Source: Acidimicrobiia bacterium
GTDB taxonomy: Bacteria > Actinomycetota > Acidimicrobiia > Spongiisociales > ZC4RG35
Reading direction: 5' to 3'
NCBI GenBank assembly: GCA_965215185.1
Contig: OZ244034.1
Location: 928,001-992,000, forward strand
Length of the DNA: 64,000 bases
The notes below the pieces were generated by a model. That model saw only the letters and a program-made list of their open reading frames with translations, ran no database searches and was not told the DNA's origin. The first letter of the stretch is position 1; each line of letters starts with the position of its first letter. Below are positions 14,218 to 62,410 of this stretch, one piece after another. A program made the position numbers and the translations under genes.

Positions 14218-15605
<1,388 letters not shown>

Positions 15606-15885: not shown

Positions 15886-15991
15886 GATGCTCCTATGTTT
15901 GTCATCAGAGCACTCAAACCTCGCATCTCAGACCGCATCCGGACCCACCTCCAACCACCCAAAGTCCACCTTCATTTGACAGAGGAGCTCA
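15886..15991. mobile_element. IS110 remnants: A-type right end (minus, ~15886-15904) and C-type 3' end (plus, ~15903-15991)
   Basis: Minus strand TGACAAACATAGGAGCATC; IRALKPRISDRIRTHLQPPK matches the C-terminus of 56066-57094; end TTTGACAGAGGAGCTCA. Confidence 0.8.
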
Positions 15992-43185: not shown

Positions 43186-43233
43186 CTGTGAGTATGTAGG
43201 GGGTGCTCTCGATTTGACAACCATAGGAGCATC
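43186..43233 (+). mobile_element. 48-bp IS110 relic: B-like left end joined to A-type right end
   Basis: CTGTGAGTATGTAGGGGGTGC resembles the B left end; CTCGATTTGACAACCATAGGAGCATC is identical to the A right end. Confidence 0.7.
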
Positions 43234-50044: not shown

Positions 50045-50180
50045 GGTCCGGAACTGGCTTCGAGGGTGCGGTGCCGTTGGCCATCGCGAACTTAGCTTTG
50101 GTGGTGTAACGGGTGGGGTCTCCCACTCCGGCAAGGATCTCGGCTGCGACCAGGGCACCGATGCCGTAAATGTGAGCCTG
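50045..50180 (-). mobile_element. IS110 C-type transposase internal fragment
   Basis: HIYGIGALVAAEILAGVGDPTRYTTKAKFAMANGTAP matches 56066-57094. Confidence 0.8.
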
Positions 50181-50478
50181 TATACATGTCTGTGTGAGGT
50201 GGGTTCTCTGAATCGCACCGATGCTCCTATTTTTGTCAAATTGATGCTTCTATGATCTCCAAATCGGGTTCGGGGGGTGGGTGGGCGTTTCGGTGGAGGG
50301 GTGGTTTCGGGGGTTGGTTGGTGGGTTTTCGAGGAGTCGGTAGAGCTGTCGGGCGATGTACCGTTTGAGACAGCGGCGGGTTTCGCGGGTGGTTTTGCCT
50401 TGGCTGGTGCGTTTGCCGATGTAGGCCCGGGTTTTGGGACAGTATCGGGAGCGGCTGATGGCGATGGTGTGGATGGCT

Positions 50479-51955
50479 TGATGCTCCTATGGTTGTCAAA
50501 TCGAGTTTTGGTGGGGTGTGAGGGTGGTGAGCCATTGGTGGTATTGGGTGGCGAGTTGATGGTTGTGGTAGATGCCTCGCTCGAGTTGTGAGAGGCGTAC
50601 TGGGTAGGTTTGTAGGGCTGTGGCGGCGTGGGTGAGGGTTGTTAGCGCGTTTTTGCGTAGACAGCGAAGATGGGCGCCGTTGGGAGTTTCGGGTGGATTG
50701 GTGAGCAGGTGGTAGATCTGGCGGGCGATGTGGCGTTTCAGGCAGCGGATGATCTCCCGGCGGTTTTTGCCTTCTGTTTGTCTTTTTTGGGCGTAGGCGA
50801 TGGTGGTCTGGTCGTAGCGCATGCGGGTGATGGCGATCCGCCACAGGGCATTGTTGGCTTGGCGGTTGCCGCCCCGGTTGAGCCGGTGGCGTATGGTCCG
50901 TCCCGACGACGCCTGGACGGGACTGGCGCCGCACAATGCTGCGAAGGACGCTTCCGATTGCATGCGTTCGGGGTTGTCACCGGCGGTGACCAACAGGGCA
51001 GCGGCGGTGTCGGCGCCGACTCTGGAGGCGGCTAACAGCGCCGGGTTGACCTGGGCGCAGAGATGGTTGATGTCGGTGGTGAGTTCTTCGATCTCGGCGG
51101 TGAGCGCCTGATATCGGCGGGCCAGGGAACGCAGCGCCTTTTTGGCGTAGGTGACGGTGATGGTGGCTGTTCGGGAACGGAAACCGGCGCAGGCCTTGAC
51201 GCGGGCTTTGGCCGGCAGTCTCTCTAGCTGGTGTTTGACCTGGTCGGGGGCGGTTACCACCAAAGCGTGCAGCTGGTTTATGGCCTGGGTGCGGGCTTTG
51301 GTCGCCGAACGGCGGGCCACCGAAAGCATCCGTATTGCTTCCACTCGACCGTTGCCGCTTTTGGGCACTGCGGTGGCCTGTCCGTTGAGAACCGCCCGTG
51401 CCGCTCCTTGGGCGTCGGTGGCGTCGGTCTTGCCCAACCGGCGGCGCAACTGCCGGTTGGGACGGTTCACCTCTGTCACCTGACACCGGCCTCGGTTAGA
51501 TAACGGGCCAGACCGGCGCCGTAACTGCCGGTGCCCTCTATACCGACCCGGACCACTCGACCGTGTGACCCCAACCAGTCGCCCAGTTGCTGATAACCGG
51601 CCGTGTCGGCCACGAAGGGGGCTGTTCCCAGGACCCGACCGGTGCTGTCCACCACCGCCGCCATGTGAACATCCCGGTGGGTGTCCACCCCACCGCACAC
51701 ATCTACCTGCTGACCTACTGACATGAACAATCCTCCTTGGATAGAATTCTGGCTAATCACCCAGACCCGGTGGCGGGTGGACAGACCACTCAGAATGAGG
51801 GAGAAGCAAAGCTCCTATCAGGTCACATCCGCCCACGGGTCGGGTGAACATCCCCCAGCCGGAAAACAGGCCGACAGATCAAGCCAAAGGCACAACGGCC
51901 AGGTTGAGTTTGGGTCAGACCTGCCCCGGCCTAGGGGCCCTTACAAGTATGAGTG
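50479..51955 (-). mobile_element. IS110 element A (recombinase 51724-50496, frameshift ~51480, C-terminal XRE-like HTH)
   Basis: GVDTH, GIEGTG, KTDATDA, SSG, HRLNRGGNR; CA core present at both junctions. Confidence 0.92.
51745..51935 (-). ncRNA. Predicted bridge RNA of IS110-A (ends approximate)
   Basis: Guides AACUCAACC (51910-51902), UGGCUUG (51886-51880), AUAGGAGC (51818-51811), UGAGUG (51792-51787) match the target flanks and element ends. Confidence 0.85.
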
Positions 51956-52859
51956 GTTGAGTTGGCGGTCGCCGCGTCGGTTCAGTCGGTGACGGGTGTG
52001 TTGTCCCGATGAGGCTTCGAGTGGTGCTACGCCGACTAGACGAGCGAAGGCGGCTTCGTTGCGGCAGCGGCGAGGATGAGACCAGGCAATGAACACTTGG
52101 GCGGCTGTGATAGGGCCGATCCCGGGTTGTTGGAGTAGCTGGGGAGCTACGGTTTGGACCAGTTCGGTGATAGTTGTTTTGAGTTCGGTTGCTTCGGTGG
52201 TGAGTGCGTGGATTCTCCGGGCTGCAGAACGCATCGCCTGTTTGGTGGCGGTGTGTTCGTTGGCCGGTGCTGATCTGAGTCGGAACTTGTGGCATTTGGT
52301 GACCAGGGCAGCAGTGCTCAGGTCACGCAGTTGGTCTCTGAGGTCAATGGGCGCGGTCACTAGGAGGGCTTTCAGTTCGTTGATCGCCGATGTTCTAGCT
52401 GTTATGGCACCACGGCGGGTAGTTTCCAGTACTCGTAGGGCTTCTCGTTCTCCCCTGGCCCGCGGTGTGGGAGGCCGGGAGCGGCCCAGCGCCTGGCGGG
52501 CGGCCCGGCGAGCGTCCAGTGCGTCGGTTTTGGCGCCGTCTCCGGTTGTTGGGTTGGGGTTGTTGAATTCTGTTACCCATTCACCTCGAGCGGCGAGATG
52601 GCTGGTCAGGCCTGCTTCATAGCTACCGGACCCTTCAACAGACCACACGCGACTGGCGGTCTGGGTGTGCTGGTCTGCCCATTTCAACAACCGGTCGTAT
52701 CCCACCCTGGTGGTCTCGAACATTGCGGATGCTTGTTCTCCGGTGGTGGCAGTGTCAACTACTGACGCGGTGACCCGATCACGGTCAGGATCGATTCCGA
52801 TCACATGCTCTACCGTTGTGGCCAACATCAGGACATCTCCCTTCTTCTTTGCGAACTGG

Positions 52860-53060
52860 GTTGTGCCCCGGCTGAGGCGCGATCCGCGAACGGCAGGACT
52901 GTGATGAGTCACACCCCTTTGGGGTGGACAGGCTTCTGATTAGGCCAGCGCGGTACGCCAGGTCGGCGCTGGTGGTCAATGTCGGACAGATCATAGGAAA
53001 GACACCAATCCGGGTCAGTCAAATTTAGGGTCACGACATCACTACCAGCACCGAGCCTGA
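52860..53060 (-). ncRNA. Predicted bridge RNA of IS110-B (ends approximate)
   Basis: Same scaffold as A (GACCC..guide..UG; UU..guide..AUCUGUC): AAAUUUGAC (53026-53018), UCCUAUG (52998-52992), AGAAGC (52937-52932), UCACAG (52904-52899). Confidence 0.8.
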
Positions 53061-53104
53061 GAACCTCCAAGAAGGGCACCCCCCCATATTCTCACAGTCA
53101 AATT

Positions 53105-53178
53105 GATGCTTTTATGATTTGGAAATCGCTTTTCGGGGGTGGGGGTTATTTGAGCTTTTTGGTGGGGGGTTTTCTAGT
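53105..53178 (-). mobile_element. Right end of a second B-type IS110 (B'), truncated by IS481
   Basis: LENPP...* followed by ATCATAAAAGCATC, like the B right end. Confidence 0.75.
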
Positions 53179-54110
53179 TGTCCTTCCCATGGACGTGGTT
53201 GACAGAATGCTTGGATGAGTGAGGGCCTCCTGGTTTGATTCGTGGGATAAGCAACAGTCCTCGAATCAAAAGGAGGCCCTCGTGAGAACCAACTGTAGAA
53301 AGTTGACACCGTTCGGGCGTAGGTTGTTGGTGGATCGGATCCTCGAGTTGGGTTGGCCGGCGGCTCGGGCCGCTGAATCGGTGGGAGTGTCTCGGCAGAC
53401 TGCCTATCGGTGGATGAGACGCTGGCGGGAGGAAGGAGAGGCCGGACTGGAGGATCGCTCCAGCAGGCCTCACCACAGTCCCAATCGGGTCTCTTCTGAG
53501 ATGGAAAAGCGGATCGTTTCGGATCGGATCACAGAGAAGGAAGGCCCCCATCTGATGGCCGGACGGCTGGGTGTACCGCGGTCGACCATCTACGGGGTGC
53601 TCGCCCGCCGGGGACTGTCCCGCCTCTCCGACTTGGACCGGACCACCGGCACACCGATCCGCTATGTGCGAGACTGCCCAGGTGAACTGGTCCACGTGGA
53701 CATCAAGAAACTGGGCAAAATACCTGATGGAGGCGGGTGGCGGGTCCTGGGCCGGTCTCGGGCTAATCCCCGTCAAAAGGTCGGATATGAGTATGTGCAC
53801 TCCATGGTCGATGACCACACCCCAATGGCCTACTCAGAAGCCCTCGACTCCCAGGACGGCCCAACCTGCGCCGGGTTCATGCTCCGCGCCGCCCACTGGT
53901 TCGCCACCTACGGGTATCGCATAGACCGAGTAATGACCGACAACGCCATGGCCTACCGCCGAAGCCGACCCTTCGCCGATGCCCTCGCCCAGATCGGCGC
54001 CGCTCACAAACTGATCCGACCCTACCGACCCCAAACCAACGGGAAAGTGGAACGCTTCCACCAAACCCTCCTCGGAGGATGGGCCTACAAACAACCCTAT
54101 ACCACCAACC
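53179..54110 (+). mobile_element. IS481-family element (transposase from GTG 53282), 3'-truncated by an IS110-A-type left end
   Basis: IR TGTCCTTCCCATGGACGTGGTTGACA; PGELVHVDIKKLG, TDNA, PQTNGKVERF; hairpin 53221-53281 covers the RBS. Confidence 0.9.
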
Positions 54111-54430: not shown

Positions 54431-56065
54431 TACGCATGTGGCGGGCACCTCGTGGACGGACGGTTGATGTCCGATCTCACCGGGGGGAAGGTAGCGAGAG
54501 CCTTTTCGCTGTCAAGCGTTCCCCGACAATCCAGTTGGGCAACCCCGGCTACTACCGGCAAGACGAGAAGTTGCTGGTTTGGGATTTGAAAGGAGTGTGC
54601 CCTGGCTGACGAACCGCGGGTCGAGGAACGGCGGAATGGCCCGGCGGATCTAGGGAGGCAAAGGGGAAACGACACCGGAGAAGCCCACACACATCCTCTG
54701 CGGGGGGATAGGCGAAGTTGCCTACACAGGCGTATTCGTCAGAGAGAAGGTCCAGATTTTCTACCTCTACGGAGACAACTGCCTGATCTTCTGCGCAGCG
54801 ATAGCGCCCCGCAACTAGCCGACAGCCAACAACACCTACTCCATGTACCCGCCTGAATCGCGCCGGGTTTCAGTTTGTCCCAATCGGTGCCATGGAAAGG
54901 GTTTGCCCCTTCAGATGTGTAGGTAGCGGTTCCAGTGTTCCATTAGTTGGCGGCGTTGTTCTAGCAGGTCGGTTCGGGCGTAGGCTTTTTCTACAGCGTT
55001 TCGGATTTCGTGTCCGAGGGCCCGTTCGGCGACTTCCCGGTTTACGCCTGTTTCTCCGCACCAGTCTCGAAACGAGCTTCTCATCCCGTGTGGCACACAA
55101 CCCACCTGGTTCTCCTTGCAAAGTTTGCTCATAGTGGCATTGCTCATTGTCCGTCCGGTGGGGGATGGGAAGATCAAACCAGTGCTGGTTGATGTTTGGC
55201 GTGCGGTGAAGAGAACCTTTAGTGCCCCGGTGCTGAGCGGAACCCGGTGTTTTGTCCGGTTTTGGTGTGTTCTGGGGGGATTGTCCAGGTTGCTGTGGCA
55301 AGGTTAATCTCGTCCCATGTGGCGTTTCTGACCTCCCCGCTACGGGTGGCGGTGAGGGTGAGGAATGTGAAAGCGGCGATGGTAGCCCAGTGAGCGTCGG
55401 TGGTTTCGACAGTCCGTATTGCCGTGGCGACTTGGCTGTGGTGGAGGGCTTTCATGTGTTGGGGTCGTTGGGTGTTGGAGCCCAGGGCGGCGGTGATACG
55501 GTCGTCGGCTGGGTTGTTCTCTCGGAACCCCTGGGCGATGCACCATTTCATGACCGCGGCGATCCGTTGTTTGACGCGGCGGGCCGTTTCGGGTGTTGTG
55601 TGCCATATGGGGGTGAGGCAGGCCATGACATTGGCTGTGGTGATTTGGTCCACCCGTTTTTTCCCAAGGTGAGGATAGGCGTAGGTGTGGAGGGTTGACC
55701 GCCAGTGTTCTTCGGACCTGCCGCCAGGTTTCCATTTGGCGGCGTGAAGCTGGATTACTTGTTCGGTGGCCTGGCGAAAGGTGGGTGCTTTGCGGGGGCG
55801 GGGGTTGCGGCCTTCTGCGATGGCTTGGCGGTTTCGGAGAGCCCGCCGGCGGGCTTCGGCGAGGGTGACTGCTGGGTAGCTACCCAGGCCCAGGTTGGTG
55901 TATCTGCCGTTGATCTGGTTTCGTTGTGCCCAGGTTTTGGAGAGTCGCCCCTGGATTTTGGTTGGTTTGACCAACAGAGAAAGTCCATGGCCGCCTCGGC
56001 CGTCGCCATAGCGTCCGGGTTGGGTCACTGTTCTAACGAAAGATGCTGTGAGTGTTGGTGAGCTC

Positions 56066-57094
56066 CTATGTCAAAATCGGGGTTGGTTTTGGTGGTTGGA
56101 GGTGGGTCCAGATGCGGTCTGAGATTCGGCGTTTGAGGACGCGTATGGCGTCTCTGTGGGTCTTTCCTCGGGTGATGAGTTTCTGGTAGTAGCGGCGGCC
56201 TTCGCTGTCTGCGCGGGCGATCTGGGTCAAAGCGGCGGTGTGGATGGCCCGGTTTAGTTGGCGGTTCCCACCCCGGTTGAGTCGATGGCGTACTACTCGT
56301 CCGCTGCTGGCTTCGATGGGTGCGGTGCCGTTGGCCATGGCGAACTTGTCTTTGGTCGCATAGCGGTGTGGGTTGCCCACCTCCGAAAGGATGGTGGCAG
56401 CGACCAGTACACCCACCCCGTGAATGTCTAGTAGACGGGTTTCGGATTGGTCGACCAGTGTTTTGATCTCGGCGGTGAGTTGTTTGATCTCGGTGTCCAG
56501 TTGTCGCAGTCTTCGGATGCGTTGTTTGGCTACCCGCCCGTGGGGGGTGGTGTCCCGCCAACACAGTTTCATGGCCTGGTCGAGGGCTTTTCGGGTGGTG
56601 AGCCGGGGAATGTTCTGGTGGTAGCCTGGTCGGAGTTTCCCCAGGTCGGCGTGGAGCCGGTTGGCCTGGGCGGTGCGGTCTTCTACCAGTTCACGGCGGT
56701 ATGAGACCAGCACACGGAGGTCTTCGGTGTCCTCCCAAAACGTCGGCGGGGCGAGCGTGTTGTCTCGGAGAGCGACCCTGGCGATCACCCAAGCGTCGAC
56801 CTGGTCGGTTTTGGTCTGGGTACGGCCCCGGCGCCGGACCTGGGCGGTCAGCTGCGGTGGAACCTCCCGGATGTCCAGACCAGCGGCCATAGCGGCGACC
56901 GCGGCTGGGCGGCCGAACGTGCCGGACCCCTCGACCGCTACCCTGGCGGCGTTGGTGGTGTGAGCCCAATCTATGAGTTGACGGTGACCAGTAGGGGTGT
57001 TAGCGATGGTCCGGTACTCCAGGGCGGTGCCCAGGTGGTCTACCAAACAGGCAGAAAGGGTATCCTTGTGCGAGTCGATCCCGATAACGAACAT
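56066..57094 (-). CDS. IS110-family DEDD recombinase
   Basis: GIDSH, VEGSG, KTDQVDA, SSG, HRLNRGGNRQLN. Confidence 0.95.
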   Translation of the reverse strand: MFVIGIDSHKDTLSACLVDHLGTALEYRTIANTPTGHRQLIDWAHTTNAARVAVEGSGTFGRPAAVAAMAAGLDIREVPPQLTAQVRRRGRTQTKTDQVDAWVIARVALRDNTLAPPTFWEDTEDLRVLVSYRRELVEDRTAQANRLHADLGKLRPGYHQNIPRLTTRKALDQAMKLCWRDTTPHGRVAKQRIRRLRQLDTEIKQLTAEIKTLVDQSETRLLDIHGVGVLVAATILSEVGNPHRYATKDKFAMANGTAPIEASSGRVVRHRLNRGGNRQLNRAIHTAALTQIARADSEGRRYYQKLITRGKTHRDAIRVLKRRISDRIWTHLQPPKPTPILT

Positions 57095-57119
57095 GGTTCA
57101 ATCCTCCAATTTCGGGGGT

Positions 57120-57305
57120 TTGCGGGAGCGGCAGAAGGCTCGGCGAAGCGCATCCATGCGTCGAAACAACACCCCCACAGGGGGCAGATACAAGTCACGC
57201 TCCTATCAAGCGACAACACCGAGCGGGCAACCGGTGGGGAGACACTCACTAACTAAGCCACCACAATGGGGCAGGGTCGTTTGGAGTCATCCCCACCGGC
57301 ACTGC
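57120..57305 (-). ncRNA. Predicted bridge RNA of IS110-C (ends approximate)
   Basis: 10-bp stem CCGGUGGGGA/UCCCCACCGG encloses AAACGACC (57282-57275) and GUUAGUG (57253-57247); donor guides AUAGGAGC (57206-57199) and ACGCAUG (57161-57155). Confidence 0.85.
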
Positions 57306-57511
57306 CACACCCCAACATATAACACGCATGGTCGTTTCACCCCTGCTTCTCCCTGTCCGCCAATCCAGAGAAGGTCCGGTACCGCCGACTATTTCTAGTG
57401 TGGGTTACTTCGATAGTTATCAACATTGCAATGCGATTAGGTGCAACCCCGTGAGACTGTCTGGAACTACCTAGGACACCAATACCCTGTTGACCTGGGC
57501 AAATATGAACC

Positions 57512-62294: not shown

Positions 62295-62410
62295 GGCGCT
62301 TGTCTCAAAACGGTACTTCGCTCGACAACTCTGCCGACCCCTCGAAAACCCACCACCAACCACCCCAGAATCCGATTTGCAAGACATAGAAGCACAACCA
62401 TAGGAGCATC
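62295..62410 (+). mobile_element. IS110 B-type 3' remnant fused into an A-type right end
   Basis: Decayed CLKRYxARQL..LENPP; ...GACATAGAAGCA|CAACCATAGGAGCATC. Confidence 0.78.

Follow-up and report, generated by a model that had tools for sequence, protein, structure and literature searches.

The 64,000-nucleotide stretch of Acidimicrobiia DNA analysed here (the window; G000:C1:928001-992000, where G000 is a 3.12-Mb, 60.7% G+C single-contig genome) carries at positions 50220-53178 a cluster of insertion sequences (IS) of the IS110 family, centred on an element that we call B. Sequence comparisons support the view that the guide of B is directed at the right end of other IS110 elements, where insertion would split a TTGACA box resembling a -35 hexamer. 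We think it somewhat probable that the locus is a nested pile-up of such insertions and not a self-renewing array, with B aimed at IS110 right ends and its right junction formed by an exchange between right ends (REs). The initial annotation of the window had likewise read the guide of B as aimed at the right end (-35 box) of other IS110s, and this is borne out by the copies described below; it had also proposed that insertion regenerates the target and permits head-to-tail stacking, which the family-wide survey does not support. That IS110 lineages carry guides pointing at one another is a more interesting result than the array idea.

B is a bridge-RNA element of the IS110 group

Pfam profiles find 24 DEDD-domain matches and 23 Transposase_20 matches in G000. 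B is a member of the IS110 family, IS110 group, whose elements encode a bridge RNA: it has both Pfam domains, a long non-coding upstream region with two loops, and loop segments that covary with its flanks. All parts of the locus lie on the minus strand. The left end (LE; 52862..53096), which encodes the bridge RNA and its two internal loops, starts TGTGAGAATATG at 53096. The recombinase gene begins with an ATG at 52828, and its N-terminal 291 codons (51955..52828) match PF01548 (DEDD, RuvC-like; E 6.2e-15, profile positions 1-151 of 155) and PF02371 (Transposase_20; E 4.2e-16, profile positions 3-66 of 87). Within the latter domain, after ...RRGDRQLN, the gene is broken by another IS110 element, X. 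The remainder of the Transposase_20 domain lies beyond X at 50479-50243, in a segment (50243..50479) that holds the C-terminal part of the recombinase (QAIHTIAISR...) and the RE, ...CGATTTGGAGATCATAGAAGCATC, with its tip CATAGAAGCATC at 50243. This segment is 87-90% identical to the 3' parts of elements in three related genomes (G004, G008 and G005). Without X, B is about 1.38 kb long. By direct reading, hexamers near its tips are TTGGAG, 14 nt from the RE tip, and GAGAAT, which starts 3 nt into the LE.

The boundaries of B follow from its relatives. The related genomes are metagenome-assembled genomes (MAGs) of uncultured Acidimicrobiia, some from sponge bins, and junction surveys covered 17 genomes of the genus, G000 included. 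Three other copies in G000 (B2, B4 and B5) and 40 distinct elements from G000 and its relatives end ...CATAGAAGCATC with unrelated flank directly after, and in these 40 the RE tip ...GCATC is followed at once by the sequence that the right target guide predicts. The family has no terminal inverted repeats. In a survey of 40 family elements with both ends found, the flanking repeat was 0-1 nt; B, which stood outside the 40 as its LE had paired with the RE of X, is the sole exception, with 8 nt. At the left junction the target's xC is retained, as AC, GC, TC or CC, and every right junction has TC, so that one C is all that both junctions consistently share. As alternatives we had considered a CT core as in IS621, and also element boundaries at GTGAG...GAAGC with CT/AT as the core. 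Both were dropped for xC/TC, as comparison of B2 with its empty site in an X-type open reading frame (ORF) leaves a duplication of at most 1 nt.

The guides can be read from covariation

An RNAalifold consensus of 14 diverse family LEs folds into two internal loops enclosed by stems; 14 of its 46 pairs show compensatory changes. Rfam returned no match for B-family left ends at E<=1. We read the guides by the IS621 convention, as given in the accessible text of PMC11208160: the left target guide (LTG) is read in the sense of the left target and core, and the right target guide (RTG) is reverse-complementary to the core and right target. The LTG segment is the 10 nt between GTCGTGACCC and TGACC; it varies by sub-lineage and follows the left flank. 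The RTG segment is the 11 nt before TATGTCCG and follows the right flank. In B these are TAAATTTGAC (53018..53027) and CTTTCCTATGA (52991..53001; reverse complement TC-ATAGGAAAG).

Covariation fixes these positions. Across 35 distinct insertions in 16 guide classes, the LTG matched the left flank of its own class at 5.58 of 7 non-core positions and those of other classes at 2.15 of 7. Across 24 elements in 11 classes, the corresponding values for RTG and right flank were 4.46 and 1.55 of 6. None of 5000 permutations reached the observed value in either case, although related elements share labels and the trials are not independent. Copies B3-B7 and B10 of G000 were not captured in this set. 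The donor-binding loop (52899..52938) is nearly invariant across the family. Its left donor guide (LDG; CAGAAGCCT, 52938-52930) resembles the RE end TAGAAGCAT, and its right donor guide (RDG; TCATCACAG, 52907-52899) is reverse-complementary to C-TGTGA, with which the LE starts.

The target loop of B matches C-type right ends

The target loop of B reads AAATTTG-AC / TC-ATAGGA, which gives a predicted site AAATTTG-AC-ATAGGA, the 15-mer AAATTTGACATAGGA. The initial annotation had derived the same 15-mer, and the covariation-validated reading agrees with it. Within the window the site matches, as had been reported, 13 of 15 positions (56078-56064) at the right end of an intact IS110 of another lineage, C (GATTTTGAC^ATAGGAGCTC, 56059..56078, minus strand), a predicted target that is unoccupied, and 12 of 15 in a C-type right-end remnant on the plus strand (TCATTTGACAGAGGA(GCTCAC), 15972..15986). 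The four best matches to the 15-mer in G000, with no more than 2 mismatches, include all three identical C-type right ends. The left flank of B itself fits its LTG at 9 of 10 positions when the preceding TC is counted.

Occupied sites of this kind are present in relatives. B-type copies in G011 (both junctions) and G004 lie inside C-type IS110 elements, between ...CAATTTGAC and ATAGGAGCTC, with no duplication. The G011 copy is an uninterrupted B-type element with the same RTG, placed between ...CCCCAATTTGAC and ATAGGAGCTCATC; the G004 copy is the closest relative of B and sits between ...CCCCAATTTGAC and ATAGGAGCTCGCC. Upstream of the insertion, the C-terminus of a C-type recombinase ends at a distance of 8 nt in G004 (locus L002) and of 41 nt in G011 (locus L089). 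G001 has an element with a covarying LTG, TTGTTTTGAC, after CCCGATTTTGAC, and the C tail ATAGGAGCTCAC comes after two B-type RE remnants of G000. Because the G011 and G004 copies sit in C-type ends and two remnants run into a C tail, targeting of IS110 right ends is supported. The predicted cut falls between TTGAC and A, 10-15 nt from the tip of the host element and inside the -35-like TTGACA hexamer, which by direct reading lies 11-14 nt inside the tip of C-, A- and X-type ends. In the IS621 paradigm, as far as the accessible text describes it, such hexamers form circle-junction promoters (PMC11208160).

The three identical C-type copies of G000 (window 56059-57330, minus strand; genome 1647xxx and 2653xxx) each carry a 343-aa frame and have unoccupied right ends. 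No intact B-type element with a matching guide is left in G000, where X interrupts B and only a truncated copy stands at 228671. The best match to the B target in this genome (AGATTTGACATAGGA, 1 mismatch) lies at genome position 1753620 on the minus strand with no detected IS110 gene adjoining, and may be a solo right-end remnant.

Anatomy of the locus

Downstream of B lie the last 23 nt of an A-type IS110 right end, AATTTGACAAAAATAGGAGCATC (50220..50242), identical over 22/22 nt to the RE of A_1096k. The 23-mer divides into an octamer, AATTTGAC (50242-50235), and AAAAATAGGAGCATC (50234-50220), and is followed by the A-type target GGTGCGATTCA. More broadly, the 22-23 nt after the RE of B also terminate A-type right ends at other places in the genome, and GGTRCGGTTCA follows them as it does other A-type ends. 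We rejected AATTTGACAAAAATAGGAGCATC as part of a composite right end of B: other copies end at GCATC, and the 23-mer precedes typical A-type targets. Upstream of B the octamer recurs (53097..53104), as the left target (LT) plus core of B and as the first 8 nt of the A-type right-end 23-mer. Since B-family copies end at CATAGAAGCATC with unrelated flank after, the octamer reads as flank on both sides of B and not as part of it.

Directly upstream of the left octamer is B' (53105..53178), a 74-nt right-end remnant with CATAAAAGCATC at its terminus, truncated at 53178 by another IS. It shares 93% identity with the 3' end of B8, another B-family element, and 89% with a junction of the same type in G002, and only 83% with the RE of B over 47 nt. 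It is thus nearer to B8 than to B, and B' and B belong to different sub-lineages. A 201-nt contig from sequencing run X1 spans the B'-B junction (53012-53212) with 0 differences, and a second contig, from run X5, spans 53024-53187 without differences, so the junction is no assembly artefact. The runs were available as assembled contigs only, and run X1 may be the source sample. No joint between RE and LE of the kind a circle would give was among the joints listed from these contigs.

X, which the initial annotation did not mention, is a complete 1475-bp IS110 of another lineage (50480..51954) nested in the recombinase gene of B. It has its own non-coding LE with bridge RNA, a frameshifted recombinase and an RE ending ...CGATTTGACAACCATAGGAGCATC. 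Its LTG (AAACTCAACC, 51911-51902) and RTG (51889-51879, reverse complement TCAAGCCAAAG) both match its flanks in the B ORF, where it is inserted at codons ...RQLN^QAIH. Joints from 50474-50478 to 51954 in runs X1, X5 and X7 represent B copies without X, on sides of only 20-30 nt. A second copy, X2, 95-99% identical to X, lies at the same place in B3 (genome 371-375 kb). In contigs of four runs an additional base stands behind 51481.

The flanking octamer and the history of the locus

The initial annotation had noted the octamer on both sides of B, an A-type right end after it and a B-type right end directly before it, as well as a second B remnant fused into an A-type end; all of these are present, the last as a B-type RE (62295-62394, plus strand) joined to the X-type RE tail CAACCATAGGAGCATC (62395-62410). 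From these it had suggested that insertion regenerates the target and that copies then stack; in such a model, insertion at AATTTGAC^ would recreate AATTTGAC downstream, by an 8-bp duplication or through a motif in the end of B. Such self-renewal would account for a perfect 8-nt flanking repeat that is the left half-site of B's own guide (the chance of 8-nt identity at both borders of one element is arithmetically 4^-8), and for a B-family RE lying 8 nt upstream of the LE of B. However, no other family member has the octamer in its RE, none of the 40 surveyed elements has a flanking repeat longer than 1 nt, and the intact G011 and G004 copies pass from left target to B to right target without duplication. 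Head-to-tail junctions, with RE and LE 0-14 nt apart, occur once in the 17 genomes, in this window, and B' there is of another lineage and not a copy of B. (The sequence of B' reads ATAAAAGC, and the survey needed a looser pattern to recover the window junction.) A recreated site would, moreover, still have no ATAGGA half directly after AC. The accessible text of a preprint on expanded IS110 loci also holds that IS110 insertion does not regenerate the target (10.64898/2026.08.14.744561). We consider self-renewal quite unlikely, and the tandem look of the locus needs no self-renewing target.

A different account is suggested by the guide of B8. The left flank of B8 lies within an A-type 3' end and is matched by its LTG TCCAAAACCC and by the reverse complement of its RTG, TCGATTTGAAG. 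The B8 guide (CCAAAAC-CC/TC-GATTTG) is directed at a 'TC site' 23 nt from the A-type tip. A search for right-junction patterns gave 9 matches in 5 of the 17 genomes. TC-site junctions, with GCATC followed by (A/G)ATTTG..., are those of B, B3 and B' in G000 and one in G002. Junctions at an 'AC site', GCATC followed by AA(A)(A)ATAGGAGC in A-type ends, occur twice in G007 and once in G003, where GCATC runs into AATATAGGAGC, AAACATAGGAGC or AAAATAGGAGC. As read from these sites, B' and B are stacked at two positions 8 nt apart in one A-type right end. The right flank of B (TC-AATTTGAC) misfits its own RTG (TC-ATAGGA) and is a B8-type junction. A like discordance is seen in B3, whose left flank agrees with its LTG but whose right flank, an X-type 23-mer, misfits its RTG. 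Both the 5' and the 3' part of B are closest to the G004/G008 lineage, so the disagreement between guide and junction seems to lie at the RE tip.

We infer the following order of events. An A-type IS110 would first have inserted at its usual target, GGTGCGATTCA. A B8-lineage element, now B', would then have entered 23 nt from the A-type tip, leaving AATTTGACAAAAATAGGAGCATC downstream. The guide of B, which would direct insertion into other IS110 right ends at ...(A/G)ATTT(T)G-AC^ATAGGAGC, inside the TTGACA (-35-like) box, could next have been used on the AATTTG-AC left half-site 8 nt further on, forming the left junction. Finally X, guided to the ORF of B, would have inserted in the recombinase gene. 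The two octamers would then be two copies of the start of the A-type right-end 23-mer. The right junction of B is probably the product of an exchange in which two B-family right ends recombined at the RE core, either between donor halves (left donor with left donor, LD-LD) or by homologous recombination; integration of a circle excised between two such ends and carrying an 8-nt leader would be an equivalent route. Expanded IS110 loci with LD-only boundaries and tandem modules (10.64898/2026.08.14.744561) and reported donor-only recombination (10.64898/2026.08.31.748434), both as described in the accessible parts of these preprints, fit such an exchange.

Several points weigh against this history. 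The reciprocal product, GCATC followed by AAAAATAGGAGC, was not found in G000 in the right-junction pattern search. The right half of the A-type end at the AC site (AAAAATAGG) fits the RTG of B poorly, and the third step therefore needs a match of the left half only. Enrichment of the predicted 15-mer is weak, with 4 sites at no more than 2 mismatches in G000 against 0-3 in five shuffled genomes, and the register of the donor loop (LDG against RE tip) is only approximate. Several G000 copies also escaped the covariation analysis. Lastly, one contig of run X6 connects 50241 with 53174 and bypasses B', B and X; one side of the joint measures only 22 nt, and both sides are repeats. It may be a repeat artefact, or a B-free allele that would argue for a local event duplicating 8 nt; in the latter case it would lend weak support to self-renewal.

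Two further explanations invoke recombination. B' and B could be an old tandem duplication, made by unequal sister exchange (homologous, or site-specific between LT and right donor or between LD and LD) and later diverged and truncated. A doubled RE-TC-AATTTGAC is indeed the expected product of unequal exchange of a unit made of B and TCAATTTGAC. Yet the REs of B' and B share only 83% over 47 nt, with no alignment further upstream, against 93% for B' and B8, and the element would have sat at a site unmatched by its own guide; we regard this as improbable. Alternatively, B could be a chimera in which crossing-over in nested X copies or in B bodies joined a 5' half to a TC-site 3' half. Both X-bearing elements, B and B3, have right flanks that misfit their guides, X copies are 95-99% identical, and the 371-375 kb locus is visibly rearranged. 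The 3' part of B is nevertheless nearest the same lineage as its 5' part (G004 87%, G008 90%), in a 236-nt segment that resolves lineages poorly, and we hold such a chimera to be an unlikely source of B. The initial annotation had itself named recombination between copies as an alternative to regeneration. This comes nearer to the nested pile-up with an exchange at the right junction that we favour, in which the anatomy, the guide reading, the class of target and the lineage of B' are established and the order of events and the exchange are conjectural.

Guide programmes of other IS110 lineages

B is not alone in its choice of target. Among B-family junction flanks in G000, 11 of 23 match A-, X- or C-type reference elements (blastn-short), and 2 more carry a C tail by direct reading. 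A looser scan of LE junctions over all loci gave 47 junctions, many with flanks of only 400 nt; another IS110 recombinase gene lies no more than 700 nt upstream at 15 of them (5 in RE position, 3 in the ORF and 7 antisense) and was not found within that distance at the other 32. Copies inside A- or X-type recombinase ORFs are B2, a remnant at 1613045 and one copy in G007. B5 (genome 2343754-2345153), B7 (1324072) and a remnant at 909304 lie antisense in A- or X-type left ends, at the segment that codes for the donor loop of the host element. Some hits are reciprocal: X has inserted in the ORF of B, and B2-type elements in that of X. One candidate junction, in which the right flank of G008 locus L078 (TGTGATGAG...) appeared to abut an LE, was set aside, as no recombinase gene was found in the 2.2 kb downstream.

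The sub-lineage with LTG GAGACCACTC and its variants inserts antisense at the right-donor-guide stretch of its host, GAGTGGTCTGTCC, also at loci L011, L013, L037, L057 and L058, and the same programme is found in other families, including a Ca. Spongiisociaceae MAG. Two 47-nt mini-elements (window 43187-43233, plus strand; genome 1096004, minus strand) consist of the first 22-24 nt of a B8-type LE and the last 23-25 nt of an A/X-type RE. They sit at the A-type target GGTACGGTTCA and resemble a TC-site insertion stripped of nearly its whole body. A-type right ends followed by a further 11-nt RE tail (ATAGGAGCGTC, CTAGGAGCATC, GTAGGAGCATC) occur at genome 1612691 and 1096004 and at 1399467 in G002, which points to a third insertion site in A/X right ends, used by A-type elements and located 11 nt from the tip.

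Beside the locus, a 36-nt repeat ending ...CCCACCTCACACAGACATGTATACAGGCTC (window 50174-50209) has 8 copies in the genome and resembles the end of another IS lineage. Its counterpart in G012 and G008, ...CACACAGACGATTTGAC^AGGCCC, serves as target for 10 and 4 B-family copies, respectively; at one G012 copy a D-type IS110 recombinase gene ends 8 nt upstream. Elsewhere in the window, an ALIL pseudoknot, the frameshift signal of IS3-family elements, lies at 15147-15276 on the minus strand (Rfam 56.9 bits, E 6.7e-12).

Implications

Bridge-RNA elements are programmable, and in nature they home to repetitive extragenic palindromic (REP)-like repeats, attC sites and Tn21 ends. Here the guide programmes of natural elements are directly legible, and many are aimed at other IS110s, at positions that are hard for those elements to change. 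The elements thus provide a natural set of reprogrammed guides, with at least 16 target-loop classes on one scaffold. These patterns suggest that IS110s may treat one another as rivals, or as landing sites that are safe and present in many copies. One could go further, though we put this forward only tentatively, and envision IS110 sub-lineages whose target loops have evolved against each other's constrained parts, a form of RNA-guided competition or hitch-hiking in which the right junction of B would be the footprint of a donor-half (RE-RE) exchange. The constrained parts would be, with equal reserve, the -35 box region of the RE, the donor-loop-coding LE (hit antisense) and a conserved recombinase motif. 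As a candidate case of natural half-site recombination, the locus bears on the off-target behaviour of bridge-recombinase genome editors.

Comparison with known systems

The B family follows IS621 and the IS110 group (see also Hiraizumi et al. 2024, PMC11208158) as Durrant et al. 2024 (PMC11208160) present them: a recombinase with DEDD and Transposase_20 domains, a long non-coding two-loop left end upstream of the gene, an LTG in sense and an RTG in reverse complement, a conserved donor loop, no inverted repeats and no target duplication. Unlike IS621 as described there, the B family targets the right end, ORF or left end of other IS110s and not REP-like chromosomal repeats, and its core is xC/TC in place of CT. 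Only the C is common, and CT is not family-defining. The B family also differs from IS621 in having no Rfam model and in its hosts, uncultured Acidimicrobiia. In openly licensed papers and preprints we found no report of IS110 guides aimed at other IS110 ends; supplementary target tables (PMC11208160, PMC11187229) may hold cases.

Some elements of the IS1111 group resemble B as DEDD-transposase IS that take the end of another mobile element as a specific target. They differ in having subterminal inverted repeats, a 3' seekRNA and a target in Tn3-family inverted repeats, not in their own family, and no reciprocal targeting has been described for them. Half-match (donor-only) recombination of IS621, as set out in the accessible part of 10.64898/2026.08.31.748434, provides a mechanism for exchange between two REs without a matching target. 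It was shown there in vitro, whereas here it would explain one junction. The expanded and tandem IS110 loci described in the accessible text of 10.64898/2026.08.14.744561 share with the present locus repeated insertion into occupied sites, tandem modules and left-donor (RE)-only boundaries. Their tandem units are at least 95% identical, whereas here two diverged sub-lineages with different guides meet in the end of a third element.

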